DNA from: a virus
Lineage: Duplodnaviria; Caudoviricetes
Virus record (IMG/VR): IMGVR_UViG_3300037524_001870
Span: 1-44,184 of that record
DNA length: 44,184 nt
Strand: one strand, 5' to 3'
Numbering within the stretch: position 1 is the first letter of the stretch; the number at the start of each line of letters is the position of its first letter. Below, one piece after another: positions 3,669 through 43,790 of the stretch. Under the pieces are notes generated by a model. The model was not told the origin of the DNA and made no database searches. It worked only from the letters and a program-made list of their open reading frames with translations. A program made the translations under genes and the position numbers.

Positions 3669-3689
3669 AGATTATTCGGAGGAAACAAA

Positions 3690-11200: not shown

Positions 11201-12649
11201 ATGTCAGTGAGAATTGAAAAGATTTCCGGGACGTATGCACAACTTCTGGCTTCCGAAAATGTTGTTTTGCAGGGAGACAAGATACTAACTTTCTTCCATC
11301 CGGCAGCTCGCTACAAAGCTAAGCATAAGCGTGGTGGATGGGACGGAAAAATTCACTTTCTAAAGTACCCTAAAGGATTTTTTCCTGTTGGGTTTTCCTA
11401 CAGGTTGGCCTCTGAACTAAGAAAACTCGGACACTCAGTACAGCTATCCGGGTTTCGTATGCAGTGCGAACCTAGATTTCCCGAAAATCTTTTTGATGTC
11501 GATCTTCGTCCGTATCAAGTAAATGCTGCAAACATTGCCATGAAAAGTCTTGGTGGTGTTGCTCTTCAGATACCGACTGGTGGAGGTAAAACTTTAGTAG
11601 GCGCAGAGATAGTTAGACGGTCTGGAGTACCTGCTTTGTGGATCGTCAATGGCATAGACTTGATGTATCAAACAAGAAAAGTTTTGAGAAAGGTTCTAAA
11701 TTGCGATGTTGGAATACTAGGAGATGGAAAAGCTGAAGATGGGGATGTGATGATCGGCATTGTCAACACACTCAGCTCGATAAAGGATAAAGATTTTTGG
11801 AATGCTTGGGGTTGTTTGATTGTTGACGAAGCTCATCTCGCTAGCGCACCTACTTGGTTTGAATGCGCGATGAAATGTCAGTATGCAAACATCAGAGTTG
11901 GATTATCTGGAACCATGGATACAAAGAATCCATTACGAAATGCGAGAATAGAAGCGGCTCTTGGTCCAACTGTCATCGTCGTGAAGCACGATGAACTCGT
12001 AGAAGACGGGCACCTTGCTAGAGCGAAAATAGTTTTACTTCGACCAGACAGAGCTTCATATCCTAGTCACGAAAACATTCGAGACACAGTTTGTCCGGAT
12101 TGGAGAAAGTCACCTCAACTTCTGACAACAAAAGGTGGGCAGCTTTTTGGTCTCACGTATGAGCGAGGAATTGTTCAGAACGAAGCAAGAAACAACCTCA
12201 TTAAAAATATTGTCATGCGAGAAGTTGAAAACAACAAGCGAGTTCTAGTTGCGTGCAAAAGAACGTTTCACGGAATAACGCTTCAGAAAATGATACCGGG
12301 AAGTAGGTTCTTACATGGAGAGCATAAATCAATGGAACGACTAGCTGTCTTAGATGCTTTCAAACGTAGTCAGTTTGGTGATTGTTTAATAGCTTCTGAA
12401 ATTTTCAAGATAGGAATCGACGCTCCTGAGATCGACGTTTTGGTCATTGCGACAGGTGGAAAGTCGGCCATCGACGTGCTACAGTGGGTCGGCCGAGCTT
12501 TGCGTCCAAGGGGGGACAAACAGGATGCGACAATTTACGATTTCATTGATGGTAGAATTGACTCTAAGAAAGACTACCTAAGTGCGCATAGTACCGAGAG
12601 AATCGAGGAGTATGGCAAGGCCGGATTCGTACTAGAGAGGTGGTCTTGA
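11201..12649 (+). CDS. Superfamily 2 DEAH-box helicase (UvsW/XPB-like)
   Basis: LRPYQ, PTGGGKT, IVDEAH, GLSGT, GIDAP and QWVGRALR motifs; GAGG SD before ATG 11201. Confidence 0.92.
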   Translation: MSVRIEKISGTYAQLLASENVVLQGDKILTFFHPAARYKAKHKRGGWDGKIHFLKYPKGFFPVGFSYRLASELRKLGHSVQLSGFRMQCEPRFPENLFDVDLRPYQVNAANIAMKSLGGVALQIPTGGGKTLVGAEIVRRSGVPALWIVNGIDLMYQTRKVLRKVLNCDVGILGDGKAEDGDVMIGIVNTLSSIKDKDFWNAWGCLIVDEAHLASAPTWFECAMKCQYANIRVGLSGTMDTKNPLRNARIEAALGPTVIVVKHDELVEDGHLARAKIVLLRPDRASYPSHENIRDTVCPDWRKSPQLLTTKGGQLFGLTYERGIVQNEARNNLIKNIVMREVENNKRVLVACKRTFHGITLQKMIPGSRFLHGEHKSMERLAVLDAFKRSQFGDCLIASEIFKIGIDAPEIDVLVIATGGKSAIDVLQWVGRALRPRGDKQDATIYDFIDGRIDSKKDYLSAHSTERIEEYGKAGFVLERWS

Positions 12650-12650
12650 T

Positions 12651-14135
12651 ATGCCTTGTTCGGGGGAGTCTCAGGTGCTAAAATCGAGACGTGAGGCAGA
12701 TGGGGTGGGACTCAGCGACGTCAAGCCTCCACGTCGCTCTGAAACCATACAAAAACCTGCCTCATTACGGGAAGGAGTTGGGCCGACTCCTTCCCTTTTT
12801 AATTCAAAAACATTCACTTCAAAGGGCTGGAGTGAACTTACAGGCACGGCTGCAAAAGTTTATTTGTGCGGCCTACTGATGTCTGACTCGGAAAGAAACC
12901 TCACGATCAAGCATTGTGATTTCTGTGAGGAAGCCGGAGTACCAGATACAACACTTAGAAACTCAATACGCCTGTTGAAGAAGCTTGACCTGATAGTTTA
13001 TAAGCAGGGACTAGGCCGTGGCGTAGCTTCAGAATACCATTTCCCGATTCACGAAAACGTTCAGTTTCGTTGTGAATTGCCAAAAACACCGGAAATGCTG
13101 CAAGTGATTTCTAGTTTTAACGCTGCCGAAGTAAAACTATACGGCGTAGCAAACTTGATTTGTGACGAGGAGAAAAAGTTTAGAGTTAGAGTAAAACGAT
13201 TAGCCGAGCTTTCTGGAATCTGTTCACAGTACATACCGGAGACAAAGCAAACGTTGAAGGCTCGTGGTTTGCTGAAACCGGTGAAACGAATCAAAAAAGT
13301 CGTTGTCTACAAAGTTTTATACCCGGAGGAGGAGGTTAGTGTTGTGGCAAAGGTGACGAAATCAGGAAAGCTCGGAGGCTTGAAAAAAGTTTCGAAGGGG
13401 AAGGGTTTGTCGGTCGCAGCAAAAGTGTCCGACGGGGAATCTGGACGCCTTTTCGGAAAAGTGTCTAAGGGGGGTAGTGTTCCCCCTTTAGGGGGAACAC
13501 TGGGGGGTTATAATAACTCTTGTCAAAATACCTTCCTACCTAAGGCAAAGACTCAAAAACTTAAAACCAAAGATTCCTCTTCTTCTTTACCTTTTCTTTA
13601 TTTTTGCGCACGCGCGAAGGACGGTTATTCACAGACACTTTTGCCTTCGTCCTCGCGCCGGGGCGCAGAAAAAACAGAAAACTTCTCCGATCCGGAGGAA
13701 TATTTTCCCGATATTCAGAAAAAGGCACGAGGCCAAAAACTTTCGCCAGCAGAAGAAGTGGCGTTCTTGCTCGAAGCCCAACGAATTCTCCGGACCACGA
13801 TAGTATCGCCAACAGGCTCTGCTACATCGCTAGGTGGTCGAATGCGAAAACTTTTGAAAGCGAGGCTACGTGAAGGATTCACAATCCCCGATATGAGGCG
13901 TGCCTGCAAAGCGGCTGCCGATGCTCAAGACCGAGGCAGTGCCTTCGGTGGAATGAAAAACATTTTCTTTGTTCTAGGCACAGGCTTACCATCCCTCCTC
14001 GCTTCAGATAGCAATGCTAAAATTTACAGAACAGGGGAAGACTTCGACTCTTGGCAAGAAAGCTTGGAACCTCCCGATAATCAGTCAGTGGCTAACTTCT
14101 TCATCGAAAACAATTTTCCAAAGCGAGGTCACTGA
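12651..14135 (+). CDS. Replication initiator protein (lambda O-like organisation, tandem winged-HTH N-terminus)
   Basis: WSELTGTAAKVYL...LRNSIRLLKKLDLI and a second similar HTH; internal iterons; directly upstream of a DnaC-like loader. The true start may be GTG 12705. Confidence 0.72.
   Translation: MPCSGESQVLKSRREADGVGLSDVKPPRRSETIQKPASLREGVGPTPSLFNSKTFTSKGWSELTGTAAKVYLCGLLMSDSERNLTIKHCDFCEEAGVPDTTLRNSIRLLKKLDLIVYKQGLGRGVASEYHFPIHENVQFRCELPKTPEMLQVISSFNAAEVKLYGVANLICDEEKKFRVRVKRLAELSGICSQYIPETKQTLKARGLLKPVKRIKKVVVYKVLYPEEEVSVVAKVTKSGKLGGLKKVSKGKGLSVAAKVSDGESGRLFGKVSKGGSVPPLGGTLGGYNNSCQNTFLPKAKTQKLKTKDSSSSLPFLYFCARAKDGYSQTLLPSSSRRGAEKTENFSDPEEYFPDIQKKARGQKLSPAEEVAFLLEAQRILRTTIVSPTGSATSLGGRMRKLLKARLREGFTIPDMRRACKAAADAQDRGSAFGGMKNIFFVLGTGLPSLLASDSNAKIYRTGEDFDSWQESLEPPDNQSVANFFIENNFPKRGH
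12656..12684 (+). promoter_or_regulatory. Putative sigma70-type promoter with extended -10
   Basis: TTGTTC (12656-12661), 17-bp spacer, TGcTAAAAT (-10 at 12679-12684); TSS predicted near 12691. Confidence 0.55.
12691..12800 (+). ncRNA. Candidate structured small RNA / leader RNA
   Basis: Stem TGAGGCAG (12692-99)/CTGCCTCA (12757-64); inner stem AGCGACGT/ACGTCGCT with loop CAAGCCTCC; terminal hairpin plus U-run. Confidence 0.6.
12769..12800 (+). terminator. Intrinsic terminator-like hairpin inside the 5' part of the initiator ORF
   Basis: Perfect 10-bp stem GGGAAGGAGT/ACTCCTTCCC, loop TGGGCCG, then TTTTT. Confidence 0.72.
13349..13620 (+). other. Putative replication origin: four iterons at a 36-bp period, a 12-bp inverted repeat and an AT-rich tract
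   Basis: AAAGGTGACG (13349), AAAAGTTTCG (13385), AAAAGTGTCC (13421), AAAAGTGTCT (13457); AGTGTTCCCCCT-TT-AGGGGGAACACT at 13476-13501; AT/pyrimidine-rich sequence follows. Confidence 0.68.
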
Positions 14136-14837
14136 ATGCTTAACAAAGTTTTTAGTATAGACGACCTTCGGCGTCAAAGGCTGGAGGCCGCAAACATTAG
14201 GGGCCAGTACCAAAACTTTTCATTTTGTAGTACGCCACACTCGATTGTAAAAGGTATTCCGTACAAACTTGTCAGAGCATGGACTGCAATGCCAGAACCA
14301 AAGCCCTCCGGACTTTTGCTTTTTGGCCCGGCCGGTGTTGGCAAGACCGGCTTAGCTGTTTCTGCTGCCCGTGAGCGAGCGCTTGCCGGAGATGGCTTGG
14401 CAGTCGACTGGATGAAAGCCACAAATGCTGCTAGACAAAAACTTTCAGACTCTGATTCAAAAGTAAAATATATTGCTCCTGTTTGGTTTGAAAGTTGGAT
14501 TGGTTTGACTATGCGACTGTGGGCTTTGAGCACGACATCCGGATCGGAGTACATGCGAGCTTTCGACGATATTTTACGAAAACCTGAAGTTTTAATCCTC
14601 GACGACATTGACGTGGGCACAATGACAGATTTTCGTGAGTCGATTTTGTACGCAATACTAGAACAGTTTAGTAATAAAAAGCGTCTAATTTTAACTATGA
14701 ACAGATCACCTTCCAACTTGGTCAAACACTTCGGTGAAAGAATTGTAGACCGATTAGTCTCCAACTTTTTGTGTCTGTATATCGAGGGAAAATCCAACAG
14801 ACAAAAGGTTGGGAGGATCCAGTGCGATGCCGAATAA
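14136..14837 (+). CDS. DnaC/IstB-like AAA+ helicase loader
   Basis: GLLLFGPAGVGKT, VLILDDI, LTMN and ERIVDRL motifs; located between the initiator and the helicase. Confidence 0.85.
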   Translation: MLNKVFSIDDLRRQRLEAANIRGQYQNFSFCSTPHSIVKGIPYKLVRAWTAMPEPKPSGLLLFGPAGVGKTGLAVSAARERALAGDGLAVDWMKATNAARQKLSDSDSKVKYIAPVWFESWIGLTMRLWALSTTSGSEYMRAFDDILRKPEVLILDDIDVGTMTDFRESILYAILEQFSNKKRLILTMNRSPSNLVKHFGERIVDRLVSNFLCLYIEGKSNRQKVGRIQCDAE

Positions 14838-16233
14838 CTATGAATTCAACGAAATGTTTCAGAGGAAGATACTAGCATTGGCTGTTAGATCCGATCTACT
14901 TCGCTCTGCTAGCGATTCCTTTCGCCCGGAATTTTTTGATGTGGACTCGAATGTATTCTCACCAAGGAAAGCTTTAGCTTGTATCATAGAAAAGTTTTCC
15001 AAGGAAAACAGAAACGAACGTCCGGGAACTGCAACGATGGACGATCTCGTGCTGTACGAAACAAAACGATTGCCAAAGAATGAGTCGTCGGCTTTGATTC
15101 GAGAATGGAAAATTGTTAGGTCAATAAAAATTCCAGACCCAAACTACGTAAAGGACCGTGTTCGTAGGTTTGCACAAGAATCGGCAATCGCCACTGCCGT
15201 GATGCGTGCAGCAGAAATAATTTCAGAAGCTCAGGAGAATGGCACACCTCCCGATTCTAAAACTATACGTCGAACAATAGACGAGGCCTTGAGGGTTGGC
15301 GGGTCTGACAGTGTTAGACGAGGCTTTTTGATTCGAGATTACGCCCTTCGCGCTGTAGAGTGGAAGCGAGTAGACAGCAGGAAAAAAATTCCAACTGGTC
15401 TAAAAACTTTGGATGCTGAGCTTAGTGGGGGTCCAGCAAGAGGCGAAGTTTTTTACATTCTGGCCGAGCCAAAAGGCTCTAAGACAGGCTTTCAACTGAA
15501 CGCAGCGCTTGGTGCAGCTCGATCAAGATATGGCGTGGCATATTTTTCCTACGAAATGAATTGGATGAAGATGCTCATGCGCATGGATAGAAACATTTCG
15601 CGAAAGAACAAAAATGAACTACAGAGTTCCGATGGTCTTCCTGCTTTGAGCCGAGCCATCAAGGGAATGAAGGCTGCCGGTTCCGGGGAGATTGTTGTTC
15701 AAGAATTTGATGCGAGAAAACATGGGTGTTCCGAGGCAGCCAGAGTTGTCGAAGAACTCAGAGGCGAGGGAACAGACATAGATCTCGTTGTGTTGGATTA
15801 CTTAAACATTATGTCTTCAGATACCAGAGAAAAAGAAAAGCGACACGAGCTAGCCCAAATTTCCCGAGAAATGTCTCAACTCGCTAGAGAACTTAACGTT
15901 GTTGTTTGGTCTGCTGCTCTTGTAAACCGACAAGCCGTCGAAAAGACTGTGATAACAAAAGCCGACATTGCAGAAAGTTTTGAAGTCATTGCAGTTTTGG
16001 ACGGAGCAATCGCAATTTGTGGTGACAAGCCTCTTCGAGAATCAGGCTGCCGAGCATTGTACCTTGCAGCTCTGAGAGAGGATGAAGACGAGAAGTTAGC
16101 TGGAATCTACGAGGTTGACCGAGAGATAATGCGATTCAGGGATGTGACTGACAAAGTTTTGGCTGAGTTTGGAAATGTTCAAGATGGAATAGACTCCAAC
16201 ATTGAGGCTGTTCCTGCGAGAGATCTTAGGTAA
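14827..16233 (+). CDS. dnaB: DnaB-like replicative helicase
   Basis: IPTG...LD..L.GG, Walker A variant AEPKGSKT, YFSYEM, VVLDYL, ISREM..LARE and DIAESF motifs. Confidence 0.88.
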   Translation: MPNNYEFNEMFQRKILALAVRSDLLRSASDSFRPEFFDVDSNVFSPRKALACIIEKFSKENRNERPGTATMDDLVLYETKRLPKNESSALIREWKIVRSIKIPDPNYVKDRVRRFAQESAIATAVMRAAEIISEAQENGTPPDSKTIRRTIDEALRVGGSDSVRRGFLIRDYALRAVEWKRVDSRKKIPTGLKTLDAELSGGPARGEVFYILAEPKGSKTGFQLNAALGAARSRYGVAYFSYEMNWMKMLMRMDRNISRKNKNELQSSDGLPALSRAIKGMKAAGSGEIVVQEFDARKHGCSEAARVVEELRGEGTDIDLVVLDYLNIMSSDTREKEKRHELAQISREMSQLARELNVVVWSAALVNRQAVEKTVITKADIAESFEVIAVLDGAIAICGDKPLRESGCRALYLAALREDEDEKLAGIYEVDREIMRFRDVTDKVLAEFGNVQDGIDSNIEAVPARDLR

Positions 16234-16297: not shown

Positions 16298-16326
16298 TTG
16301 ACATCCGAAAACGCTTGTGGTACACT
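16298..16326 (+). promoter_or_regulatory. Sigma70-type promoter P1
   Basis: TTGACA, 17-bp spacer, TACACT with TG extension; leader hairpin and AGGAGG follow. Confidence 0.8.
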
Positions 16327-16378
16327 TCGTTCACCGGTGGGTCGGCCCCCACCGAGTTCGTTTTCAGAAGGAGGCGTT

Positions 16379-16939
16379 ATGCAAAAGATGTCGGAGCTTC
16401 TAAATCCAATCGCAAAACAGTTAGGCTTCAAACCGGATGATGCCCTTCCTAACGAAGAAGAAGTGGAAGTTTTCAGGGGTGGAAATCTTAGATCTTTCAT
16501 TGAACCTTGTGGATGCCACTGCGAAGAAAATCATGATCGTCCTACGTGGAAAGTTTTTGACAAGAAAAAGTTCGAAGAAGTTCCAGTGATAGTCACTCGG
16601 CTTTGTGGCTTTCACGCTAAAGCCCCGGAAGTTCCAGCCAGATTGCAAGGGATACCCAGCAAGATTGTTGAAGAAAAGTCGCGACTAGCTGAAAGCAAAA
16701 GTTACAACCCTCTAAGGCTAAAGTTCACAGTCAAAAAATCCGGCGAAAACTACTCTCTAAGTTTGAACGGTCGTGTTTTTCTACAGGGCACTTCAAAGGA
16801 TTTCTTGATCTCAGACGTTCTGTCAATGCTACGCAATCAACTAAATCTTTCGGCCTTCGACGTTACGTTTGACGATTCCTCTTCGATGCTCGAATCTATT
16901 CCAGTTGCAGTGCTGGAGGTAAAACATGGACTCCGATAA
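16379..16939 (+). CDS. Hypothetical protein (Cys/His-containing)
   Basis: AGGAGG SD before ATG 16379; the ORF-track start at 16298 is the -35 box. Confidence 0.7.
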   Translation: MQKMSELLNPIAKQLGFKPDDALPNEEEVEVFRGGNLRSFIEPCGCHCEENHDRPTWKVFDKKKFEEVPVIVTRLCGFHAKAPEVPARLQGIPSKIVEEKSRLAESKSYNPLRLKFTVKKSGENYSLSLNGRVFLQGTSKDFLISDVLSMLRNQLNLSAFDVTFDDSSSMLESIPVAVLEVKHGLR

Positions 16940-18731: not shown

Positions 18732-18760
18732 TTGACAAGCGTTTGCGTTTTACATATAAT
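18732..18760 (+). promoter_or_regulatory. Consensus sigma70 promoter P2
   Basis: Exact TTGACA, 17-bp spacer, TATAAT. Confidence 0.9.
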
Positions 18761-18822
18761 CCCCCCATCACTCGGATCTCCCGGGTGTTCGCCGGTCGGC
18801 CCCGGCAGGAAGGAGGCTTTTC

Positions 18823-20367
18823 ATGGAGGCAAAACCAGTTTCTCGTTTGGTAGTAGATGCAAGATCAGTATCAACCCCTTTAGTTGGCATAGAAACTTTC
18901 GATCCAAGTGAGACAATTCGCGAGGTAACAAAGGCTGTATTCGAGGTCGAACCAAACATTCCTGTCTTTAGATGGGACTTGATCTCTGGGCTGAAAGCCG
19001 TAAACGAATTGGCTGTTTCTGCTCTGCGTCAAGTATTTGGAGGCGACTTAGAGAACTTGCAGGCAATGACATCCAATCCTGCTGAGTCCCTTAACTTGAT
19101 GGTGAAGTTTCCGGGCGATTCTCTGATTTTCTTCTTGAACGCTCACCGGTACTTAGAGCCTACCCAACAGGGGAGCGAGGCTGTTTCTCAGGGCATTTGG
19201 AACCTTCGAGACCTGTTCAAGAGCAATGGCTCAACCCTTGTATTGCTTGGGCCGTCTTTCATGTTCCCTCCGGAATTGGCACAGGACATTATCGTGTTTT
19301 CCGAGGAACTGCCTGACGATTCTAGGTTGATGGACATTGCAGCGAAGGTGTGTGAGGCGGCTGGCATTGGCGACATCGAAGAAGATGACGCTTTGAAGAT
19401 CGCTTCTGCCCTTCGAGGTCTTCCTGCTTTTCCTGCTGAGCAAGTGGTTGCAATGAGCATCGAGAACGATCGAGTAAATTTGCCTTCTGTTTGGAAGCGC
19501 AAAAAGTCCAGCATCGAAAAAACTCGTGGACTTACATTCTGGGAGCCTCAGTTTACTTTCAAAGACGTCGGTGGTTCTGAGGAAATAAAAGCTTTCGACG
19601 CAGCGTTGTTTTCTAGCGCTCAATCGCCAAACTGTATTGTCTTCATTGACGAAATCGAAAAGCTTTTTGCTGGTGCGTTTGGTTCTGGTTCTGACACATC
19701 GGGCGTTAGTCAGGATCAACTCGGCGTGATGCTCAGCACAATGGAAGACAATCAAATTTGTGGGAAAATCCTCGTTGGACCTCCCGGAACAGGAAAAAGT
19801 CAGTTCGCTCAGGCTGTTGGGAAAACATTTAACGTGCCAGTAATCAAGATGGATCTTGGCGCAGTTAAGGGCTCACTTGTTGGGCAGTCTGAAGCTCAGA
19901 TGCGAGCCATGATGAAAACGGTTTTGGCTGTTGGTGGAAACAAAGCTTACTTTTTTGCGACCTGCAACAAGTTGGAAGCCATGCCCCCAGAATTGCGACG
20001 ACGGTTTCTCGACGGCATTTGGTATTTCGATATTCCAAACCCACAAGAGCAAGCGTCTATCTGGAAAATTTGCATGTCCAAGTATGGGCTAAAGGCGCAG
20101 GATCTTCCCGAGTACTCGAATTGGACTGGAGCTGAGATTCGAAACTGTTGCTTTCTGGCTTACAGACTTGGAAAACGACTGACTGAAGTTTCCCGATACA
20201 TTGTTCCCATCATGATTTCGGATCCACAGTCAGTAGAAAAACTTAGAAATACTGCCGACGGAAGATATTTGTCTGCTTCGTATGCCGGACCGTATCAAAA
20301 GGACAAGTCAGTAATGCCTGAGTACGAGGAAGCCGTGCGTCGCATGAGAAAACGTTCTTCAAAATAA
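18823..20367 (+). CDS. Ycf46-like AAA+ ATPase with permuted motif order
   Basis: N-terminal degenerate AAA module (WD...GL, PPEL); F.DVGG; IVFIDEIEK; GPPGTGKS; ATCN; PPELRRRF. Confidence 0.85.
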   Translation: MEAKPVSRLVVDARSVSTPLVGIETFDPSETIREVTKAVFEVEPNIPVFRWDLISGLKAVNELAVSALRQVFGGDLENLQAMTSNPAESLNLMVKFPGDSLIFFLNAHRYLEPTQQGSEAVSQGIWNLRDLFKSNGSTLVLLGPSFMFPPELAQDIIVFSEELPDDSRLMDIAAKVCEAAGIGDIEEDDALKIASALRGLPAFPAEQVVAMSIENDRVNLPSVWKRKKSSIEKTRGLTFWEPQFTFKDVGGSEEIKAFDAALFSSAQSPNCIVFIDEIEKLFAGAFGSGSDTSGVSQDQLGVMLSTMEDNQICGKILVGPPGTGKSQFAQAVGKTFNVPVIKMDLGAVKGSLVGQSEAQMRAMMKTVLAVGGNKAYFFATCNKLEAMPPELRRRFLDGIWYFDIPNPQEQASIWKICMSKYGLKAQDLPEYSNWTGAEIRNCCFLAYRLGKRLTEVSRYIVPIMISDPQSVEKLRNTADGRYLSASYAGPYQKDKSVMPEYEEAVRRMRKRSSK

Positions 20368-20378
20368 GGGGGTGCAAA

Positions 20379-20711
20379 ATGCCTTGCGATCAAATAATTA
20401 CCACTTCGCTTGATTTGTTTGTTGCAAATACTGATCGGCTTGAATCAGCGCTTCAAATTCTTGGGTTTCAGACAAAGAAAACTCCAACCGGATTTTCTAT
20501 GCGCCACTCACAGAGTTACATTTCAGGGTACTACAACAAACAAGAAGGCCTCGTGTTGCAGACGTCGCAATACGCATCTCGCGACAACAAGTCTCTTGTT
20601 TCTGAAATTCGAAGAAAGTATAGCGAACTCACTGTCAAAGATGCAGCAAAAAAGTTCAAGTGGAATGTGACGCAAACTTCGGCGAACAAATTTGTTTTAA
20701 GGAAAATTTAG
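20379..20711 (+). CDS. DUF1257/Ycf35-like protein
   Basis: L..AL..LGF and ..Y....V...AK motifs; usual neighbour of Ycf46-type ATPases. Confidence 0.55.
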   Translation: MPCDQIITTSLDLFVANTDRLESALQILGFQTKKTPTGFSMRHSQSYISGYYNKQEGLVLQTSQYASRDNKSLVSEIRRKYSELTVKDAAKKFKWNVTQTSANKFVLRKI

Positions 20712-21278
20712 ATGAAGAAAGGTTTGAAGCGCTCGGCTTTGGTGAAAATGGTTCTCACCGAAAGGTCTGCTAAGTCTGCCAGAATTTCTAGGGCAAGAAT
20801 TTCTAGGTACAATGCAGCAATAAACGATGTGCCAGAGCCAGAGTTAGCTTACGAGTCTGAAATGCTTTTCGATGAAAGCGCAATCGAAGTTTTGCCTATA
20901 GAAACAATTACTGCTAGATTGCCTTACGCTGCAAGCTCAAAGCAGTTTGGATCTGGTCATGTAGAAGTAACATTTAGCACGCTCAATACGATTGACATGC
21001 TGGAATACTTTTTCTGGACGAAAAAGTGCCTCTATCTTGCTCCTTTTGACAACCTTGGGTCGGTGCGTGTTTATTGCAGCACTCATGGAAACAACGCACC
21101 TTGTACCTGTTCTACGTTAATTGCCGTATTCTGGTCCTCAAAAATTAGGGAGAAAAAAGTTAAAACGATTGCTGATTTGCACGCTACGTCGAGTTTACTC
21201 AATTCAAATGCAGATTCGTCTTTGTCACAATCCACTTTACGAAAATTCAAGCTAAAAGGGGGCGCCAATGAAAGCTGA
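20712..21278 (+). CDS. Hypothetical protein
   Basis: 188-aa ORF filling the operon gap. Confidence 0.55.
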   Translation: MKKGLKRSALVKMVLTERSAKSARISRARISRYNAAINDVPEPELAYESEMLFDESAIEVLPIETITARLPYAASSKQFGSGHVEVTFSTLNTIDMLEYFFWTKKCLYLAPFDNLGSVRVYCSTHGNNAPCTCSTLIAVFWSSKIREKKVKTIADLHATSSLLNSNADSSLSQSTLRKFKLKGGANES

Positions 21279-21480
21279 CGAACTTCAAATCGAAATTCTC
21301 GAAGACGGGACAATCAAAACAACTACCAGTAAAATTTCAATGGCAAACCACAAAGCTGCTGATTTGTTTCTTGAAATGTTGGCAAAGGAACTTGGAGGCT
21401 CAGTAACAAAACAGAAGCGCTCGCAAAAGTCGGGACACGTTCACACCGGATTGTCGCACTCTCACGATCACAGTCATTGA
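21268..21480 (+). CDS. DUF2997-like small protein with His-rich tail
   Basis: IEILEDGTIK...LAKELGG pattern; GGGGG SD. Confidence 0.55.
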   Translation: MKADELQIEILEDGTIKTTTSKISMANHKAADLFLEMLAKELGGSVTKQKRSQKSGHVHTGLSHSHDHSH

Positions 21481-21501
21481 CGTTTTGAAAGGAGGCTTGC
21501 A

Positions 21502-22440
21502 ATGGACAAGACGAGTTACGAGTTGAAGGGAAATGTTGTCACACTGTTTATGCACTTTCGGAAGCCGACAACCAGCAGAAAGGCAGACATTGAAGAGGGT
21601 AATTTCGAGGACGTTGACATCTCGATGCTGCGACTGAGCAAAGAGATTATCGATTCTCCCGAGTTGAAGAAAATCGAGTCCTACGACAGCCAGACGTATA
21701 CCTATGTAAAGCGAGTGAGTATGCCTTTCCTTGAGGGTATGCGAGGTTTCTACACTCTGTACCCTTCGCAGGTTGAAAAAATTCACGACTATTTGACCGA
21801 GCGTTCTGAAGGTCGGAAAGTTTTGATCAACGCTTTTATCGAAGAGTATCCTCGCTTGGTTTTGGAGGCCAAGAAAAGACTCGGGAAAATGTTTGAACCG
21901 GCAGACTATCCTGCTCCTGAAGCTCTGCCAGATTCCTTTGGCGCCAAGTGGCGATTTGTCTCAATCGACGTTTGCCCGGAACTGAAGGACATCGACGAAA
22001 AAATCTGGCGTGAACAAAGTATTGCAATGAAGAAGGACTGGGAAGATCTCTGGTTCACTCTGCGTGAAACGTTGCGAATTAGCCTGAAGAAAATGCTGGA
22101 TCACTTCAGCGAGACATTGCGCGGGGAGAAGGACGGAGTTCCCAAGCGATTCAAAACTACGACGATCGAGAAAATTCAAGAATTTTTGTCAACGTTCGCG
22201 ACTCGCGACATCACAAACGATGCTGACTTGGAATCTGTTGTCGAAGCAACCAAGGCTTTGCTCGGAAGTTTCGATCCTGAGGATATTCGATATTCCTCGA
22301 AAGACTCCGACGATGTGAAGCAAACGGTTGTTGATGTAAGGCAAGCCGTGGCTTCCGGCTTCGAGGAAATCAGTTCCGTTTTGGATTCTCTGCTCAAGGA
22401 AAAGGAAATTCGGAAGTTCAAGAAGCAGAGAGCTGCGTAG
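21502..22440 (+). CDS. DUF3150-like phage protein
   Basis: F.EEYP, LG..F...DYP and DITND..L motifs; AGGAGG SD. Confidence 0.6.
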   Translation: MDKTSYELKGNVVTLFMHFRKPTTSRKADIEEGNFEDVDISMLRLSKEIIDSPELKKIESYDSQTYTYVKRVSMPFLEGMRGFYTLYPSQVEKIHDYLTERSEGRKVLINAFIEEYPRLVLEAKKRLGKMFEPADYPAPEALPDSFGAKWRFVSIDVCPELKDIDEKIWREQSIAMKKDWEDLWFTLRETLRISLKKMLDHFSETLRGEKDGVPKRFKTTTIEKIQEFLSTFATRDITNDADLESVVEATKALLGSFDPEDIRYSSKDSDDVKQTVVDVRQAVASGFEEISSVLDSLLKEKEIRKFKKQRAA

Positions 22441-22514: not shown

Positions 22515-23573
22515 ATGCGCAGTCGATACTTCGATACATTCGAACAGTTTTTGAATTCTTCATCCAAAGTTGTTCGTAGAAAGTGCGAAGTTTTTGCAAA
22601 ACATTATCCTTTTTTGGACGCCGATGATTTGTATCAGGAAAGCAGTGTAGTTCTGTACGCGCTTTGGAACGAATACCCTACGGTGACAAAATCCGAGCTT
22701 CTTAGATTGGCTTCTGTAGCGACAAAGAGAAAACTCATATCCAAGTCCAGACCAAAAATGTCTTCGTCAGAATACGTAGAAATCCAAGACGATGATTTGG
22801 TTTTCAGCCCAATCGATGACGTGGAATCAACTCTCGACATAGAAAAGTTTTTGAGCTATCTGCCCGACTACCTCTCCGAAATTCTGAAAGAAATGGTTTT
22901 CCCTTCTGTAAAAACTTTGAACGCACTGCGTATTTTATCTGACACGAAGAAAACAAGAAATTGGTTGACGCTACTTCCGGAAGCTGTTCGTTTGAGTCTC
23001 GAATGTGACGAAGAGGTTTTTGATGCACGATTTCGAAAACTAAAAGTTTTAGTTCTAAACTTTGTCAAGGAAGAAAAAATGCCAACAATTAAGGACTATC
23101 TTGACGACCCGTTGATAAACGATATTCCGACTCGTGAAGACATCATAAGGGCTTTGACTCCTCAATCCATAAAACGTTCTCTGTATAATGCTGAGTATGA
23201 GCGAGAACGAAAAGCTCGGCTTACAGCAAAGTCGGCAGTGAATAGTACTAGGGCAAAGCGTAGCGGAGTCAGGCACCCACCAGAACACATCATGGTAAAG
23301 CCCGGCGTAATGGCTACAGCTTTGGCTTTGATGCTAAAGCGAGGGAGTGTTGGGTTTGAAGTAGACGAAATCGTTGAAATTCTCAGCGAGATTTTCCCGA
23401 AACGCTCGCGAAAAGGTTTGCGCCAGACAGTGTATTTGATGTCCAGAGGAATTTTGCCGAACGGCCAAAGAATGGAAGTTGTGAGCAACGCAAACAATCG
23501 TCGAGTAATCAAGCCAGCCTCTGTTCCAAAAAATGTAGGAAAAAAACCAGCAGCAGACATCAGCAACTACTAG
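22515..23573 (+). CDS. Sigma-factor-like protein (region 2-like N-terminus) with extra C-terminal domain
   Basis: DADDLYQES...LW resembles ECF sigma region 2; DIEKFLSYLP resembles the start of region 4. Confidence 0.5.
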   Translation: MRSRYFDTFEQFLNSSSKVVRRKCEVFAKHYPFLDADDLYQESSVVLYALWNEYPTVTKSELLRLASVATKRKLISKSRPKMSSSEYVEIQDDDLVFSPIDDVESTLDIEKFLSYLPDYLSEILKEMVFPSVKTLNALRILSDTKKTRNWLTLLPEAVRLSLECDEEVFDARFRKLKVLVLNFVKEEKMPTIKDYLDDPLINDIPTREDIIRALTPQSIKRSLYNAEYERERKARLTAKSAVNSTRAKRSGVRHPPEHIMVKPGVMATALALMLKRGSVGFEVDEIVEILSEIFPKRSRKGLRQTVYLMSRGILPNGQRMEVVSNANNRRVIKPASVPKNVGKKPAADISNY

Positions 23574-23581
23574 GAGGTTTT

Positions 23582-23875
23582 ATGGATAATGATGAAGCAC
23601 AAATGAGTCTTGAAAGGTGGTGGCAGAGTAGACGCATTTCTTTAGGTCTAATGCTTTACTGTGGAGTTTGCTTCGGCATTCTGTTTCAGTCGTGGAAAAG
23701 TTCATTCACAATTTTTTCCATTGTGCTAATCTGTTTATTTTTACTGAGTGGATTTTTTGCTTTGTATTTACACTTTGTCGAAGTGGGTGTTGAAAAAGAG
23801 ATAATGGAAAAGTTGCTAACGGAGGACAGAGATGCCGAAAAAGAAGCCGGAAGTAGCTCCGAAGATAACAAGTAG
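23582..23875 (+). CDS. Two-TM membrane protein
   Basis: AGGAGG SD; two hydrophobic helices and an acidic tail. Confidence 0.65.
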   Translation: MDNDEAQMSLERWWQSRRISLGLMLYCGVCFGILFQSWKSSFTIFSIVLICLFLLSGFFALYLHFVEVGVEKEIMEKLLTEDRDAEKEAGSSSEDNK

Positions 23876-25025
23876 CCCTTGTTCTGAATGCCCTCTGAAC
23901 AGCAACATAAAAGTTTTACCTTGCATTCCGAATAATCCAAAGTTTTTTGCTTTAGGTTTGGCTCCCGGAGCTACTGAGGAAATCACCGGAATCGGATTCA
24001 CAGGAAAAGCCGGGGACCTTCTACGGTCGACTCTAAAACGTGCAGGTGTAAATCCAGAGAGGGATGTAGCCTACGCAAACTTAACCAGATGTCGACCAAT
24101 AGAAGACAAGTTTGACTCTTCGTGGAAAAAAGCTCAGCGAAGATGCTCCGAGTACATGTATGCCGACTTGAACAAATTTCCGTCTCTGCCAATTCTGGCT
24201 ATGGGATCAGACACTGCCAAAGTTATCCTTCAAGATACAAAACTTCAGATAACAAAAATTAGAGGCGTGTGGTGGCTAACTCCCCATCCAGAAAATCGCA
24301 GAGTTTTTCCGACGCTGCATCCTGCTGCTATTCTACGTTCAGGTGCTGAAGAGTGGCGACGTCAATTCGAAAAAGACATCTTCACTTTTTGCAAACGAGT
24401 TCAAGGCTCTGACAATTTACCCGACATAACCATAGGAATATTTGAACGAGTAGCTGATGCCGAAAATGTTATAGACCTGTTGGTTCAGTCCGGAAGTACG
24501 TTTGCTTTTGATATTGAAACTTACGACTGCTACGAGACTCCATCCAGAAAAGCTGTCTCAACAAATCCTTTTCACAAGGACTTTCGAGTACGTGGTCTTG
24601 CAGTGGCCTATAACAAAAACTCTGGGTTTTGGATTGACTTCAAAGCCGACGAGGACAACAAGGAAGAGTGCAAAAGAATACTAAACAAACTTTTCATGTC
24701 GTCTCAACCCAAGTGGGCTTTCCATGGAAATTTTGACGAAGAAGGTTTGATCTATCAGGGTTGGGTGGATGGAATAAACAACAGATCCGGAGACGGACTT
24801 CTGGCTCTGATTTCTCTCGGTGACGGGCGACGGGCTTCCAATACGCTAGAGCGTGCCGTGATGGAAATTCTAAACGAATCTTCCTACTGGGACGTTGACA
24901 AGAGTCGCATGGCCGAACACCCAACTTCTGTGGTTGCAGAGGGTGCGGTTCGTGACGCAGTGAGCACATTCAAGCTTGTGAAAATATTGGAAGCGAAACT
25001 GAAGAAGGGAGAGTACTGCCCATGA
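23832..25025 (+). CDS. Uracil-DNA glycosylase (family 4/5-like, Fe-S) fused to a PolA-type 3'-5' exonuclease; N-terminal part of a split DNA polymerase
   Basis: CSECPL, GLAPG..E, F.GKAG, CRP and HPAAILR (UDG); FDIET, HGNFD and RDA (Exo I-III). Confidence 0.85.
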   Translation: MPKKKPEVAPKITSSPCSECPLNSNIKVLPCIPNNPKFFALGLAPGATEEITGIGFTGKAGDLLRSTLKRAGVNPERDVAYANLTRCRPIEDKFDSSWKKAQRRCSEYMYADLNKFPSLPILAMGSDTAKVILQDTKLQITKIRGVWWLTPHPENRRVFPTLHPAAILRSGAEEWRRQFEKDIFTFCKRVQGSDNLPDITIGIFERVADAENVIDLLVQSGSTFAFDIETYDCYETPSRKAVSTNPFHKDFRVRGLAVAYNKNSGFWIDFKADEDNKEECKRILNKLFMSSQPKWAFHGNFDEEGLIYQGWVDGINNRSGDGLLALISLGDGRRASNTLERAVMEILNESSYWDVDKSRMAEHPTSVVAEGAVRDAVSTFKLVKILEAKLKKGEYCP

Positions 25026-26605
25026 GAATCGGGGACTACTACAAAAATATTCTGGTTCCGGCTAATTCTGCCGTGTCGGCAATTAGACGTGCTGGAATTC
25101 CAATGTCAAAAAATAGGTTGGCTCAGACCTTCAAGGCTTTCAAAAAAGAAGTTGAAGCTTTGAAAACACAGATTGCCGAATCGGCTTCGAGATTTGGTAT
25201 CGACATGACGTTCAGTATTGCAGACCGACCAAGCGATACTGCTTTGCGAAAATACTTGTATGGGAAAAAAGGTTTGAATCTGGAATGCACTGTTCTTACC
25301 GAGAAAACTTCTCAGCCTTCCGTAGGCTCTGAGGTTCTTCGGGAGTACGCTTGCTTGGTCAATCCCCGGGACGATGATTTGCAAGAGGTTCGTGATATTT
25401 TGAAACTCAAGTCACTGACCAGAGCAATAAGCACAAACATTATTCCATTTTATGCTGCAATAAAATCCGACGGCTGTATTCACCCTCAATTCAACTGGGC
25501 TGTCGTTAGAACTTCGCGCATCAGTGCTAGCGATCCTCCTGTTCACCAAATTCCTGAAAAGTCAGACAAGGAAGTTGCAAAGGCCTTGAAGTCCTGCATA
25601 GTCCCCCGAATCAAGCCTGCTGACAAAGAGACTTGGAATCCAAAAATTCATGGGTCTGTATTTCGGTGGGATATATCGGGCGCCGAGATGGCTGTTCGGG
25701 CTGCCATGCTTACTAAGCTTTTGTGCAAAACAAGCAACAATACTTTGTGGGACTACATAAGAAACGGCAAAGATATTCACGCTCGCACTGCTGCTGTTTT
25801 GTATGGCGTCCCAGAGGGAACATTTACTAAGGGCGATTACGAGCGAGATGCTGTCGGCAAGCAGACAAATTTTGCATTGCTTTATGGTGGAAGCTCCTAC
25901 ACTCTAAAATCAACTTTGTGGAATAGGGCTCGTATTCGAATTGACGATGAAGAAGCCGAATTGAGACACAGCAGATTTTTCGAGGGGTATCCTGAGTTGT
26001 CCGAGTTGATGGAATTAGACAAGGCACTTCTCGGGAAAAACCATTACTGCGAAGATGGCTATGGCCGTAGACGATGGATTGACTATCCAGAATCTGCCCG
26101 ATTTATCGGATTTCGTGGTGGGCGAGCTATCTGGAATGTCGCTTTCGAGGACCGTCGCGCTTTGGATCACGCTTTCCATACTTGCGCCAATACTCCTACT
26201 CAAAGCATGTCGGCTACTGATAATTTGTGGATGCTTGCTTTGATGTATCACGGAGAATACGTGCCTCTGTCTGCGGCTCCCATGTGGGGTGGTCGTTCCG
26301 GCGTTTTGTTCCCAGAGGCAGCTAACTGGAGATTTCACGAAGGCCCCGGACCTAATGGTAAACCTTTTTTGGCTTGGCATACAAATACAGTTCACGACTC
26401 AGGGTGGGGTGATTGTGCTCCGGGATTTTTGGAGCCGGTAATGAAAGTTATTGCTCGCAGATGTACGGCAATTCCATTTGATTGGAGATTGACAGCAGAC
26501 GTACCATATCGAATAGATTTACAAGTTGGCCCAGATATGGGGAATCTGATGGACTACAACGAGGCTTCTAAAATATTCGGGCTGGAACCCATGCCTGTTC
26601 GCTAG
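25022..26605 (+). CDS. polA: Family A DNA polymerase, polymerase domain
   Basis: RTSRIS..DP..HQIP; motif A DISGAE; DIH; motif B KQTNFALLYG; NTPTQS; motif C VHDS. Confidence 0.9.
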   Translation: MRIGDYYKNILVPANSAVSAIRRAGIPMSKNRLAQTFKAFKKEVEALKTQIAESASRFGIDMTFSIADRPSDTALRKYLYGKKGLNLECTVLTEKTSQPSVGSEVLREYACLVNPRDDDLQEVRDILKLKSLTRAISTNIIPFYAAIKSDGCIHPQFNWAVVRTSRISASDPPVHQIPEKSDKEVAKALKSCIVPRIKPADKETWNPKIHGSVFRWDISGAEMAVRAAMLTKLLCKTSNNTLWDYIRNGKDIHARTAAVLYGVPEGTFTKGDYERDAVGKQTNFALLYGGSSYTLKSTLWNRARIRIDDEEAELRHSRFFEGYPELSELMELDKALLGKNHYCEDGYGRRRWIDYPESARFIGFRGGRAIWNVAFEDRRALDHAFHTCANTPTQSMSATDNLWMLALMYHGEYVPLSAAPMWGGRSGVLFPEAANWRFHEGPGPNGKPFLAWHTNTVHDSGWGDCAPGFLEPVMKVIARRCTAIPFDWRLTADVPYRIDLQVGPDMGNLMDYNEASKIFGLEPMPVR

Positions 26606-26643: not shown

Positions 26644-26673
26644 TAGATAGACTAGTCTAGACTAGTATATCTA
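26644..26673. repeat. 30-bp near-perfect CTAG-rich palindrome
   Basis: TAGATA-g-ACTAGTCTAGACTAGT-a-TATCTA. Confidence 0.85.
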
Positions 26674-26693
26674 GTACCGGGGGATGTGGGGGC

Positions 26694-26722
26694 TTGACAA
26701 ACGTTTTCGGCTGTGATACACT
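26694..26722 (+). promoter_or_regulatory. Sigma70-type promoter P3
   Basis: TTGACA, 17-bp spacer, TACACT with TG extension. Confidence 0.82.
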
Positions 26723-26752
26723 CGTCGGACTTCGTGAAAGAAAGGGGAGGCT

Positions 26753-26992
26753 ATGAGATCCAAGAAAGCAACAATATCGGCCGAGTCAAAGAGAACGTTT
26801 CAAGTAAAACCTTACGAATCAGAGACAGTAACTGTAGGCTACACGTACGAAATTGATTTGAACGAAAACTCTTCACCGGAAGACGGATCCAGTATTCAAG
26901 ACAAAATTTCTGCGTTGCAAAAATCTCTTTCTAAGCTCTGTGATTCTTTGGTCGCCGAAAGATTGGCTCAACACAAGAAGAAAGGGGGCTGA
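26753..26992 (+). CDS. Hypothetical protein
   Basis: GGGGAGG SD; RTF...PYES motif seen in small phage proteins. Confidence 0.7.
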   Translation: MRSKKATISAESKRTFQVKPYESETVTVGYTYEIDLNENSSPEDGSSIQDKISALQKSLSKLCDSLVAERLAQHKKKGG

Positions 26993-34713: not shown

Positions 34714-35334
34714 ATGCGAGCTTCGTCAGCGAAAAACAAAGGTATGCGATTGCAGCAGAAAGTCGCCGAATTTCTTGCTGTAAATTTCAATTTGAAAATC
34801 GAAGCTCGATCATGCAAAGCGAAACCAAACACCCATGCTCTCTACGTGAGCGAAAATGAACTTCCCGATTTACGAATTCGACCCTCAGGTCATGCTGGAA
34901 CTGATGTGATTCTGGTTTCTGACAAAGCCCATAAATTGCTGCGCTTTCCTTCTTGCCAATCGTTCAGCATAGAATGCAAAAATGTTGAAGCGTGGTCTTT
35001 GGGTCGAGACTTCTGGGTTGGAAAATTGCCAGCCTTGTTTCTCTCTGCGATGCGTCAAGCTTCCCAGCATCCCGGGTTCCCGATCCTTTTCCTCTCAAAG
35101 AATCACTGGCCGATCATCGTGGCTTGCAAACCTTTTCCGGGTATGCTAACGTTTCTCCGTAAGTCGAAGCGCCCCGTGGTCCTCAGTGCTGGATTGATCT
35201 TGTTTCCAATATCAGAACTTCCCAGCCTTGTTTCCATGGGGCAGAAAGGAGGCTCAAGTGAAGCCCAAGAAAAAAGTAAAAGGGGGTATTCTGGATGCAC
35301 AAGTGGTAGAGGAATTGGAACGCGAAGCTCGTAA
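34714..35334 (+). CDS. PD-(D/E)xK nuclease, Holliday junction resolvase-like
   Basis: SAKNKG.RLQ..V, G.DV, IECKN and QA motifs. Confidence 0.78.
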   Translation: MRASSAKNKGMRLQQKVAEFLAVNFNLKIEARSCKAKPNTHALYVSENELPDLRIRPSGHAGTDVILVSDKAHKLLRFPSCQSFSIECKNVEAWSLGRDFWVGKLPALFLSAMRQASQHPGFPILFLSKNHWPIIVACKPFPGMLTFLRKSKRPVVLSAGLILFPISELPSLVSMGQKGGSSEAQEKSKRGYSGCTSGRGIGTRSS

Positions 35335-37440: not shown

Positions 37441-37553
37441 TGGGGGGCTAGAAAAGAGCCTGCTAGAATTTACGTACGCCTCAGCCTAGGGTTTTTGGGG
37501 GGTATACGTACCTCCCCCCTAAGCTGGGGGTTTTCAGATGCTGTGGGGGGAAG

Positions 37554-37816: not shown

Positions 37817-38170
37817 ATGTTATCAGAAAGAGCTGTCATAATGTTTTGGATCCCACTTCTTTTCTCTCTGTTTCTTGCTTTTCGTCCGGTACATCCCCAA
37901 ACTTTCAATCAGAGACACGTAGCCTCCTCCGATACAGTGGCTTGCGATTCTGCTGAAAGTTTTATGCGCCTCATCTTCTTGGGCCACTTGCAGAAGGACA
38001 TTGACGCGGCTGCAAAGTTTGCGATGGTTTCCTGTGTCAGCATCAAAAAGGGCCAAGAAGTTTTCAAGCTTTCCTGTTCTGACGATTACAAGACTGTCTT
38101 TTGTTTTAGGCGTGTGGGTGAGGTGGAGGTGTTGTACGGATGGGCAGATCATTTCGAACTTCTAAGGTAG
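37817..38170 (+). CDS. Secreted hypothetical protein
   Basis: GGAGGT SD; N-terminal hydrophobic signal. Confidence 0.6.
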   Translation: MLSERAVIMFWIPLLFSLFLAFRPVHPQTFNQRHVASSDTVACDSAESFMRLIFLGHLQKDIDAAAKFAMVSCVSIKKGQEVFKLSCSDDYKTVFCFRRVGEVEVLYGWADHFELLR

Positions 38171-38532
38171 ACAACCGAGAATATCTGAGATCAATATATT
38201 TTTCTGGTTTGACCACACTCCAAGAATTGGCGGACGAACTAAATGTTACTCGTGAAGCTATTCGAATTCGCCAGATTCGAGGACTTCGAGCGCTATGGCA
38301 GAGCCAAGTAATCGCCAAGCGTCTTGGATTGACTCCACAAGAATTTTTGGAATATCGGGCCAGCAACCCACCACTGGCTGGATCTCTGGCTAGAGCATCC
38401 TACGAGGTAGAAAAAGATCCTCAGAAAGGAGTCGTCAGAAGTGGTCCAATGTTTATCGCAGTTGATAGATCTTCTCGCTTGTTTCGAGTACTGACGGAAA
38501 AGTATGAGCGTGAAAATGGGAAAGGGGAATAG
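38140..38532 (+). CDS. Stand-alone sigma70 region-4-like HTH protein
   Basis: TLQELADELNVTREAIRIRQIRGLRAL resembles region 4.2 (TLEEVG..F.VTRERIRQIE.KALRKL). Confidence 0.68.
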   Translation: MGRSFRTSKVDNREYLRSIYFSGLTTLQELADELNVTREAIRIRQIRGLRALWQSQVIAKRLGLTPQEFLEYRASNPPLAGSLARASYEVEKDPQKGVVRSGPMFIAVDRSSRLFRVLTEKYERENGKGE

Positions 38533-40134: not shown

Positions 40135-40163
40135 TTGACAAACGTTTGCCGTCGTGGTACACT
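40135..40163 (+). promoter_or_regulatory. Sigma70-type promoter P4
   Basis: TTGACA, 17-bp spacer, TACACT with TG extension. Confidence 0.82.
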
Positions 40164-40208
40164 CCTTCCCGAGCATGATCGTTTTCGGCCCAACGGAAAG
40201 GAGGTCAA

Positions 40209-40517
40209 ATGAAGCTAATTTTTTGTCCTAAGTGCAACGATATTTTCAGACTAACAGGAACTTGTAGAAAGTGTGAGTGCAAAAATTCTTACGGATACTA
40301 CGTAAATAACTTGTGTGCAGTAATTGGTGGCGATGCAATCCCTCTCGGAATTGAAAATTCGTCCTTCGTGGCAGCCCTCAGGAATCGCCCAGAAAAAACT
40401 TGGGGCTACAACTTTGAAGCTTTTGTCATTCCAAAGAGTTGTCCAACAATTCGGGTGGATTCAGATGCCAGTGAAAACGTTCCCAATCGTCCAAAAAGGA
40501 TACAGAAAAAAGTTTGA
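40209..40517 (+). CDS. Zinc-ribbon hypothetical protein
   Basis: AGGAGG SD; CPKC...C.C motif. Confidence 0.72.
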   Translation: MKLIFCPKCNDIFRLTGTCRKCECKNSYGYYVNNLCAVIGGDAIPLGIENSSFVAALRNRPEKTWGYNFEAFVIPKSCPTIRVDSDASENVPNRPKRIQKKV

Positions 40518-41113: not shown

Positions 41114-41134
41114 GTTTTCAAAAGGAGGCTGCCA

Positions 41135-43691: not shown

Positions 43692-43790
43692 AGCGGAGCC
43701 CATCACCCCCCTCCGCTAATAGGCCTAGGGTGACTAGCGGCGCTAGATAGTCTAGCTACGAGCCATAGGCGGCTGAGGAGAGTTTGACGT

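Follow-up and report, generated by a model that had tools for sequence, protein, structure and literature searches.

A structured element of about 110 nt lies at the head of the replication-initiator-like gene in a 44,184-base linear virus record from wetland metagenomes (IMG/VR record IMGVR_UViG_3300037524_001870, Caudoviricetes, approximately 51% complete), and we consider it probable that this element is a plus-strand antisense RNA that represses a dispersed set of tagged leaders in trans, whatever its role in the phage may be. We refer to the whole 44,184-base stretch as the window, and to ribosome-binding sites (RBSs) that share a phage-specific extension of the Shine-Dalgarno (SD) core as tagged. 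What can be observed from sequence is a fold, two complementary motifs, a clustering of the motifs' targets in leaders, and a matched change of element and targets in two related phages.

The predicted RNA (12691-12800) consists of an outer stem (12691-99 paired with 12757-65), an inner hairpin, and an intrinsic-terminator-like hairpin with a T5 tail. Positions 12685-12810 fold with a minimum free energy of -51.2 kcal/mol (z -4.89), which none of 200 shuffled sequences equaled, so the nested stem structure and terminator proposed in a first-pass annotation of this DNA stand. The inner hairpin (12714-12738, 8 bp) presents an open 9-nt loop, CAAGCCTCC (loop 1, 12722-30), whose opening is predicted to cost 0.07 kcal/mol, and it is the only structure on the plus strand of the 44 kb that combines a stem of at least 7 pairs with CCTC in a 6-11-nt loop. 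This loop would be an anti-SD core joined to four genome-specific bases that read the spacer between SD and start codon. The terminator-like hairpin (12769-12800) has 12 bp and a 3-nt loop, and its tip, GTTGGGCCGAC (12777-87), complements a TCGGCCC motif found in leaders. Upstream lies a candidate internal promoter (12656-12684, plus strand) with an extended -10 (TG at 12676-77, TAAAAT at 12679-84) and a poor -35 (TTGTTC, 3/6), from which transcription is predicted to start at about 12691. We favor the plus strand because the T tail and the gene orientation (all annotated genes of the window are on the plus strand) agree with the folding energies of two of the three phages, -50.7 for plus versus -48.6 for minus in the window and -69.9 versus -59.9 in the first relative described below. 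Rfam searches with cmscan at E<=1 gave no match in the window or in L012 and L039, the corresponding loci of the two relatives, in keeping with the first-pass remark that the RNA family was not recognized; 7 tiles yielded one tRNA only.

Loop 1 is complementary to GGAGGCT(TG) start sites, and all of the motifs named at first pass were found in their places. GGAGGCT occurs at 18812, 21491, 26746, 35248, 40659, and 41124, and GGAGGC at 16370, while the sites at 3678, 5962, and 8533 read GGAGGA; GTCGGCCC occurs at 16341 and 18795 and TCGGCCCAAC at 40185. These positions are best understood alongside the five strong sigma-70-type promoters that a consensus scan finds in the window, at 16298, 18732, 26694, 40135, and 43791. 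The first leader (16298-16381) runs from a promoter (16298-326) through a hairpin with loop TCGGCC (16335-54) to an RBS, GGAGGC at 16370, and ATG 16379. The second (18732-18825) has a 12/12 promoter, again a hairpin with loop TCGGCC (18791-806), and the RBS GGAGGCTT at 18812 before the AAA ATPase start at ATG 18823. In the third (26694-26755), GGAGGCT stands directly 5' of ATG 26753 without a CGGCCC hairpin, and in the fourth (40135-40211), TCGGCCCAAC (40185-94) matches the terminator tip at 10 of 10 positions, the RBS is GGAGGT at 40200 rather than GGAGGCT, and the predicted loop is GCCCAA. Further tagged RBSs precede a DUF3150-like gene (21491-21504, GGAGGCTTG, 9/9 to loop 1, before 21502), GTG 35258 (35248-35260), ATG 40670 (40659-40672), and ATG 41135 (41124-41137), the last three with GGAGGCT. 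All of these leaders and sites lie on the plus strand. Tagged targets either come first after a strong promoter or belong to the AAA ATPase and DNA-metabolism blocks, and structural genes are not among them.

A genome-wide count finds TCGGCCC in only three plus-strand copies, each within a strong-promoter leader, and it is the sole 7-mer common to three of the five strong-promoter leaders. Of 100,000 randomly drawn sets of five segments, 6 did as well with any 7-mer complementary to the RNA, and both complements were present in 1 of 5,000 shuffled RNAs. The leader stems are 5-7 bp long and differ in sequence from leader to leader. We considered TCGGCCC as a DNA operator and rejected this, since the motif is not palindromic and its flanking stems differ.

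The stronger of two cases of covariation comes from G001, a relative found through a search with the helicase (46% identity) encoded just upstream of the element; its genome has 86,832 bases with direct terminal repeats, is 100% complete, and is syntenic with the window throughout. The position of its element was set by synteny before inspection. Directly 3' of the helicase stop is a structured stretch (z -5.8) containing ATCGCTCCTCC (L012:7029-39), and the complement of this tract, GGAGGAGCGAT, is the RBS of two genes downstream of TTGACA promoters, the G001 orthologs of 16379 and 18823. The sequence TCGCTCCTCC occurs once in the 86,832 bases, and GGAGGAGCG accounts for 14 of the 94 contexts of GGAGG plus a start codon (runner-up, 3; two of the 14 head tiny frames only). 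An unguided ranking of 7-mers 5' of these 14 tagged RBSs places TGGGCAA at the top (4/14), and the complementary TTGCCCA forms the loop, fully open, of the 5' hairpin in the G001 element. The leaders of the orthologs of 16379 and 18823 carry TGGGCAA with GGAGGAGCGAT, the ortholog of 21502 carries TGGGCAA with GGAGGAGCGA, and the probable counterpart of 26753 (24% identity, syntenic) has GGAGGAGCGA, so that orthologs of the first three genes, and probably of the fourth, keep the tag despite its changed letters. Four genes of the G001 AAA ATPase cluster have a tagged RBS.

A second relative, G002 (L039, DnaB 50%), was found by DnaB profile scans and a screen for CCTCC tracts. Its element folds with z -5.1 and presents a 9-nt loop, CCCGTCCTC, on an 8-bp stem about 110 nt 5' of the initiator ATG, the same design as the inner hairpin of the window. 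Anti-RBS tract and tag pair as CCGTCCTCC/GGAGGACGG, GGAGGACG occurs at 5 of 54 contexts of GGAGG plus a start, GCAAGG lies upstream of all four filtered tagged RBSs, and the 5' hairpin of the element has the loop CC-TGCC-GG. About 100 nt upstream of the element, a TTGACA-17-TATAAC was identified by eye. On the minus strand of L145/L146, G002 also has five repeated leader units (near 21577, 25547, 27115, 29551, and 30327), in which a first hairpin is followed by GTAAACCCC and, ahead of the RBS, by a second hairpin whose stem varies in a compensatory manner while its loop, GGCAAGG, is constant; some units start with GGTGAGCC, and none has an Rfam match.

The covariation of loops and targets that the first-pass annotation had put forward as a check is thus present, with tract and tag changing together in G001 and G002, and each element complements the tags of its own genome and not those of the others. 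When each anti-RBS tract was scored against the RBSs of four genomes, with thresholds picked after the data had been seen, the window tract matched 5 of 20 own versus 4 of 122 foreign RBSs (p 0.003), the G001 tract 11 of 59 versus 0 of 83 (p 3.5e-5), and the G002 tract 4 of 33 versus 1 of 109 (p 0.010). What did not carry over is the antiparallel order of loops and targets proposed at first, since the second recognition loop is 5' of the anti-RBS tract in G001 and G002. In a simple accessibility model that sums duplex and opening costs, the two expected contacts rank first in three window leaders (16298, 18732, and 40135), where each scores -4.8 to -9.3 kcal/mol, and likewise in all five of the G001 leaders examined, at -6.3 to -15.1.

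A number of observations weigh against an antisense RNA acting in trans. Of the two exposed loops originally described, loop 1 is open, but loop 2 is a tip of just 3 nt (GGC, 12781-83), and exposing GGGCCGA would cost about 4.9 kcal/mol; in G001, the anti-RBS tract itself is predicted to be paired, with an opening cost of 4.5 kcal/mol. The promoter proposed at 12656-12684 has its extended -10, but with three of six -35 positions matched it is not called by the consensus scan, which calls no promoter at the G001 or G002 element either, nor a plus-strand terminator at these two. Within the window alone, the enrichment of GGAGGCT at start sites falls short of significance, with 5 of 20 versus 6 of 55 other GGAGG (p 0.13; the filter skipped the site at 26746). 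In the accessibility model, four untagged window RBSs score -2.2 to -5.6, and foreign RNA-leader pairs reach -11.6 and -7.9, so the model is no proof of selectivity. Co-folding, whose scope does not include kissing loops, gives no extended duplex, which leaves only loop-loop contacts possible. G002 was drawn from a screen that also gave chance matches, its second contact is only 5 bp (CGGCA/UGCCG, -2 to -3 kcal/mol), and its element folds equally well on both strands (-91.0), so its case is weaker than that of G001. The primary sequences of the three elements cannot be aligned, and their homology consequently rests on position and design.

The element is present in 2 of the 21 related loci inspected; these two have the highest DnaB identity among the related loci with upstream DNA. 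The 19 loci without it include duplicates (L014/L072, L016/L040), and L070 has no upstream DNA. The initiator start overlaps the helicase stop in L020 and lies within about 40 nt of it in L015 and L086. At L072:4860-5010 (a 48% relative), a terminator hairpin with a T7 tail and more hairpins are found 5' of the initiator, with a loop containing GTCCCC, a partial complement of the GGAGGGGAC start sites in the G003 genome; no anti-RBS tract in this structured region could be tied to a tag. At L071:8085-8160, a tRNA-like sequence directly 3' of the helicase gene occupies the place of the window element. A two-loop DNA pattern searched for in viral contigs gave 8 loci, one being this phage and seven apparently chance occurrences that match in neither fold nor synteny. 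A polymerase profile gave 5 further loci, none with a tag family in the stretch examined; the DnaB region is missing from 3 of these records.

The trans action on several dispersed leaders through two contacts that was first proposed has the covariation on its side, but a discrete transcript was not seen. Near the element, two RNA runs (X6 and X7) provide only shallow contigs (depth 2-4), one at 12517-12725 spanning the predicted start and one at 12761-12911 starting within the terminator stem and continuing beyond it, and these fit read-through or DNA. Being contigs, the runs are informative on neither ends, strand, nor level, nor on small RNAs, and a gap in the contigs over the element says nothing about it; they comprise 15 pieces each over the 10.6-kb structural region and 8 each, scattered and one of them foreign, over 16.7 kb around the element.

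The element lies inside the open frame 12651-14135 (plus strand), a fact that the first-pass annotation had overlooked. This tandem winged-helix gene is replication-initiator-like by structure matches in the Atlas, where residues 45-230 align to HTH_36 proteins, by homology to protein P0161 from residue 55 on (FTSKGWSELTGTAAKVYL versus FTNLHWRDLSPSAAKLYL), which is 5' of the Met at 12879, and by the match of its G001 ortholog to PHROG replication-initiation families. An AlphaFold model of the N-terminus made without an alignment was too poor to use, with a predicted local distance difference test (pLDDT) score of 30. Standard in-frame starts 5' of the conserved domain (ATG 12651, GTG 12675, GTG 12705) all precede the terminator, and a start 3' of the terminator was rejected because none is in frame before the conserved domain. 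ATG 12651 has GAGGTG eight bases 5' and is one base from the helicase stop, an arrangement that resembles the stop-start overlap in L020, a relative without the element. By our inference, translation of the initiator runs through the element, which would make the terminator intragenic in the window. The G001 and G002 initiators start from a separate ATG located at the last hairpin or 3' of it, which makes the nesting a peculiarity of the window. A second open frame also crosses the element, with 62 codons from GTG 12691 and an end, TGATG, that overlaps ATG 12879.

If the antisense reading is correct, the weak internal promoter would produce a plus-strand RNA of about 110 nt that ends at 12800. 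In the window, translation from ATG 12651 would allow read-through to the initiator, DnaC, and DnaB, while an untranslated transcript would stop and yield the RNA. In phage P4, translation of overlapping frames affects termination. In G001, the RNA may instead arise by processing. Loop 1 would cover the core of the SD together with two to six adjoining bases of the spacer, the latter constituting a phage-specific code, and the terminator tip would kiss the TCGGCCC hairpin, a second contact 10-40 nt upstream that would add specificity. The covered SD would exclude the 30S subunit and block translation, as for C4 and RNAIII (PMC12197685, PMC4691137). The likely role of such an RNA is to damp or shut off early and DNA-metabolism genes with strong promoters after the replication operon has been switched on.

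Another role within the same mechanism, and thus overlapping with the antisense reading, is lysogenic or carrier-state immunity of the P1 C4 or P4 CI type, with loop differences giving heteroimmunity. P1/P7 heteroimmunity does stem from C4 differences (PMC12197685), the palindrome common to the strong promoters (AAACGTTT in the window, AAAGCTTT in G001) may be an operator, and an initiator-DnaC-DnaB module is present. The Pfam families PF00589, PF07508, and PF13614 (tyrosine integrase, serine recombinase, and ParA), however, were unmatched in all four records searched, two of which are 100% complete (CheckV), G001 among them, and no repressor or antirepressor is annotated in the window or among the scanned G001 open reading frames. 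The absence of these families makes early-gene damping the likelier role, and immunity, as suggested at first pass, is unsupported and in our view unlikely, although maintenance of the phage in some other way is conceivable. A rather less probable reading, although one that can coexist with antisense action, is that the element is mainly a switch in cis for the initiator-DnaC-DnaB operon, with abundant early mRNA leaders binding its loops to unfold the terminator or free the initiator start, turning replication on after the early genes. The position at the initiator head is the feature conserved in all three phages; the second contact of the window is the terminator tip, which the initiator frame traverses; the last hairpin of G001 has the initiator ATG in its loop (AGCGATG), which could pair with the element's own ATCGCT; the last hairpin before the G002 initiator has the sense motif GCAAGG; and P4 CI governs termination ahead of replication genes (PMC4825925). 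Against such a switch, no leader opens the 12-bp terminator in co-folding (free-energy difference, ddG, 0 to -0.4), the second contact of G001 and G002 is not on the last hairpin, and the 14 dispersed tagged RBSs of G001, many within operons, are more readily understood with the tagged genes as the objects of regulation.

Two further readings dispense with RNA-RNA recognition. CsrB-type RNAs display protein-binding motifs in loops as decoys, and by analogy a phage RNA-binding repressor protein might bind the tags and leader hairpins while the element served as a minus-strand decoy. On its minus strand, the window element does present a 7-nt loop with CGGCCCA and, after it, GGAGGCTTG, which is the order found in the leaders; the variable stems and fixed loops of the leaders are as in protein sites; and G002 folds alike on both strands. 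Yet the scan finds no minus-strand promoter upstream or minus-strand terminator behind, the T tail is on the plus strand, which folds better in two of three phages, the minus strands of the G001 and G002 elements show the reverse order, and the specificity of the protein would have had to shift three times in step with both motifs, so we regard this as improbable. Least probable of all, and strongly disfavoured, is an ordinary terminator beside a chance hairpin whose CCTCC fits every strong SD, with the leader motifs arising from a separate cause such as common descent. The window alone would allow this, given an RBS enrichment at p 0.13, four copies of AGCCTCC, and leaders that share promoter sequence and may therefore share descent. 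It is opposed by the shuffle tests, by the single copy of TCGCTCCTCC in G001, by the second matched motif, and by the fact that in two relatives tract and tag, at the same gene position, have changed to match each other.

In its anatomy, the system matches the start-associated sequences (SASs) of cluster K mycobacteriophages, RBS repeats conserved beyond 16S pairing at a subset of non-structural genes, with a lone reverse copy, for which the authors leave open whether RNA or protein is the binder (PMC3203893); similar start-associated motifs occur in Microbacterium cluster EF phages (PMC7302621). An RBS repeat extending beyond 16S pairing on a non-structural subset is clear in G001 and weak in the window alone (p 0.13), and reverse copies away from gene starts are found here as well, one of TCGCTCCTCC in G001, two of CAAGCCTCC in the window, and two of CGTCCTCC in G002. 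The differences are that the 13-bp SAS consensus has one two-mismatch match in the window (0.46 expected by chance), that the tag here is shorter (7-11 nt), that the reverse copy here belongs to a structured element and varies in step with the tag, and that the upstream partner is a variable-stem, fixed-loop hairpin of 5-7 bp, whereas the 17-bp inverted repeats upstream of SAS were judged to be DNA sites.

Mechanistically, the element would work like several antisense RNAs without being a member of their families. P1/P7 C4 (RF01695; PMC12197685, PMC8198154) is likewise small, encoded by a phage, and phage-specific in sequence; it acts in trans by way of complementary loops close to an RBS, and its two tracts complementary to two target sites have a parallel here by sequence only, the second tract being mostly paired in the window fold. 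However, the RF01695 covariance model is unmatched, C4 controls its own c4-icd-ant operon whereas 7 to 14 dispersed targets are found here and the RNA would read the SD core itself, and the genes downstream encode the initiator, DnaC-like, and DnaB-like proteins, with the antirepressor family unmatched. C4 is processed from a precursor by RNase P. P4 CI and Gifsy-1 IsrK (PMC4825925) are also operon-head RNAs, found as a short form or within a read-through mRNA, and P4 CI guards replication genes. CI differs in pairing with seqA and seqC of its own leader and causing termination, whereas the clear targets here are distant leaders and RBSs; complements of the element within itself are short (GAGGC in the window, AGCGAT in G001), and the long matches are distant. 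RNAIII, LhrC, and csRNAs (PMC4691137) use C-rich loops to pair with the SDs of several mRNAs and gain specificity from a second loop-loop contact, for which LhrC uses its terminator loop. A C-rich open loop complementary to SDs is present in the window and G002 and is predicted to be paired in G001. These RNAs are host chromosomal and carry generic C-rich seeds, in contrast to a genome-specific spacer tag that coevolves with the loop, and homology to a described family is absent (no Rfam match). PMC11979758, on the importance of small-RNA terminator loops, was not used as support, since its heading says that they likely act without base-pairing. A literature search, with most subscription papers outside its reach, found no description of a phage anti-SD RNA with multiple targets that reaches a dispersed regulon through a tag in the RBS.

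The setting of the element is that of a phage with structural and lysis genes up to 10.4 kb, followed by the superfamily 2 helicase gene (11201-12649, plus strand; PHROGs and Pfam) that served as synteny anchor, the winged-helix initiator, DnaC-like loader and DnaB-like helicase genes (14136-16233, plus strand; PHROGs and Pfam), and beyond these a primase, the AAA ATPase cluster, PolA, SSB, RecA, and SbcCD. A search of a genome collection for the host gave distant DnaB matches only, identity to cultured phages is at most about 30%, and single-sequence locus searches with the helicase and DnaB found no close relative. The AAA ATPase cluster (18823-22440, with the DUF3150-like gene last) is conserved in G001, L071, and L090. 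Family A DNA polymerase is split into a UDG-domain and a polymerase-domain gene (23832-26605), as in G001 and G002, and the G001 gene at the terminase position (57015-58922) holds an intein.

All five strong promoters have TTGACA, followed in four by an A(A/G)CGTTT palindrome that overlaps the -35 and spacer (CAAACGTTTG-like in the window, CAAAGCTTTG-like in G001, at promoters 14886, 38242, 39623, 40341, 41468, and 43050) and whose center differs between the phages. This palindrome is likely an operator, for which the genes at 22518-23573 and 38140-38532 (a Sigma70_r4-type helix-turn-helix) are candidate repressors. CTAG-containing palindromes are clustered at 26645-26676 and 43725-43765, just 5' of promoters 26694 and 43791, and CTACTAG is also found 5' of promoter 40135. 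The promoter at 43791 (11/12; 43791-43880, plus strand), absent from the first-pass annotation, has a structured leader with GGAGGT and without CGGCCC; behind this SD (43871-43917), there is no standard start at normal spacing, and an ATT is 6 nt 3'. An intergenic hairpin at 37495-37535 (GGGGGG-TATACGTACCT-CCCCCC) contains ACCTCC, the complement of canonical GGAGGT start sites, and is possibly a second anti-SD element. In G001, three tandem 35-nt units with an internal palindrome and CCCTCC (L140:19118-19230, approximately 38120-38230 of the genome) are found just 5' of a strong-promoter cluster and are a possible origin, packaging, or binding array.

More speculatively, and we offer this only as a tentative possibility, the system may be a barcoded translation regulon: chosen genes would carry a code particular to the phage, placed both in the spacer between SD and start and in the loop of a leader hairpin, and a single RNA would read the two. 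With the RNA gene nested at the start of the initiator gene, RNA and initiator would be alternative outputs of one transcript, early leaders would titrate the RNA and so couple early shut-off to the onset of replication, and the SAS repeats of actinobacterial phages, which also have a lone reverse copy, would represent the same device. Phage antisense RNAs such as c4, sar, OOP, and CI act on one operon in the accounts available to us, and the element described here appears to address a dispersed set through an RBS code, with compensatory changes supplied by nature in three phages. The finding bears on the role of start-associated sequences, a question open since 2011, and, if true, it would describe a compact, programmable switch for the translation of many genes.

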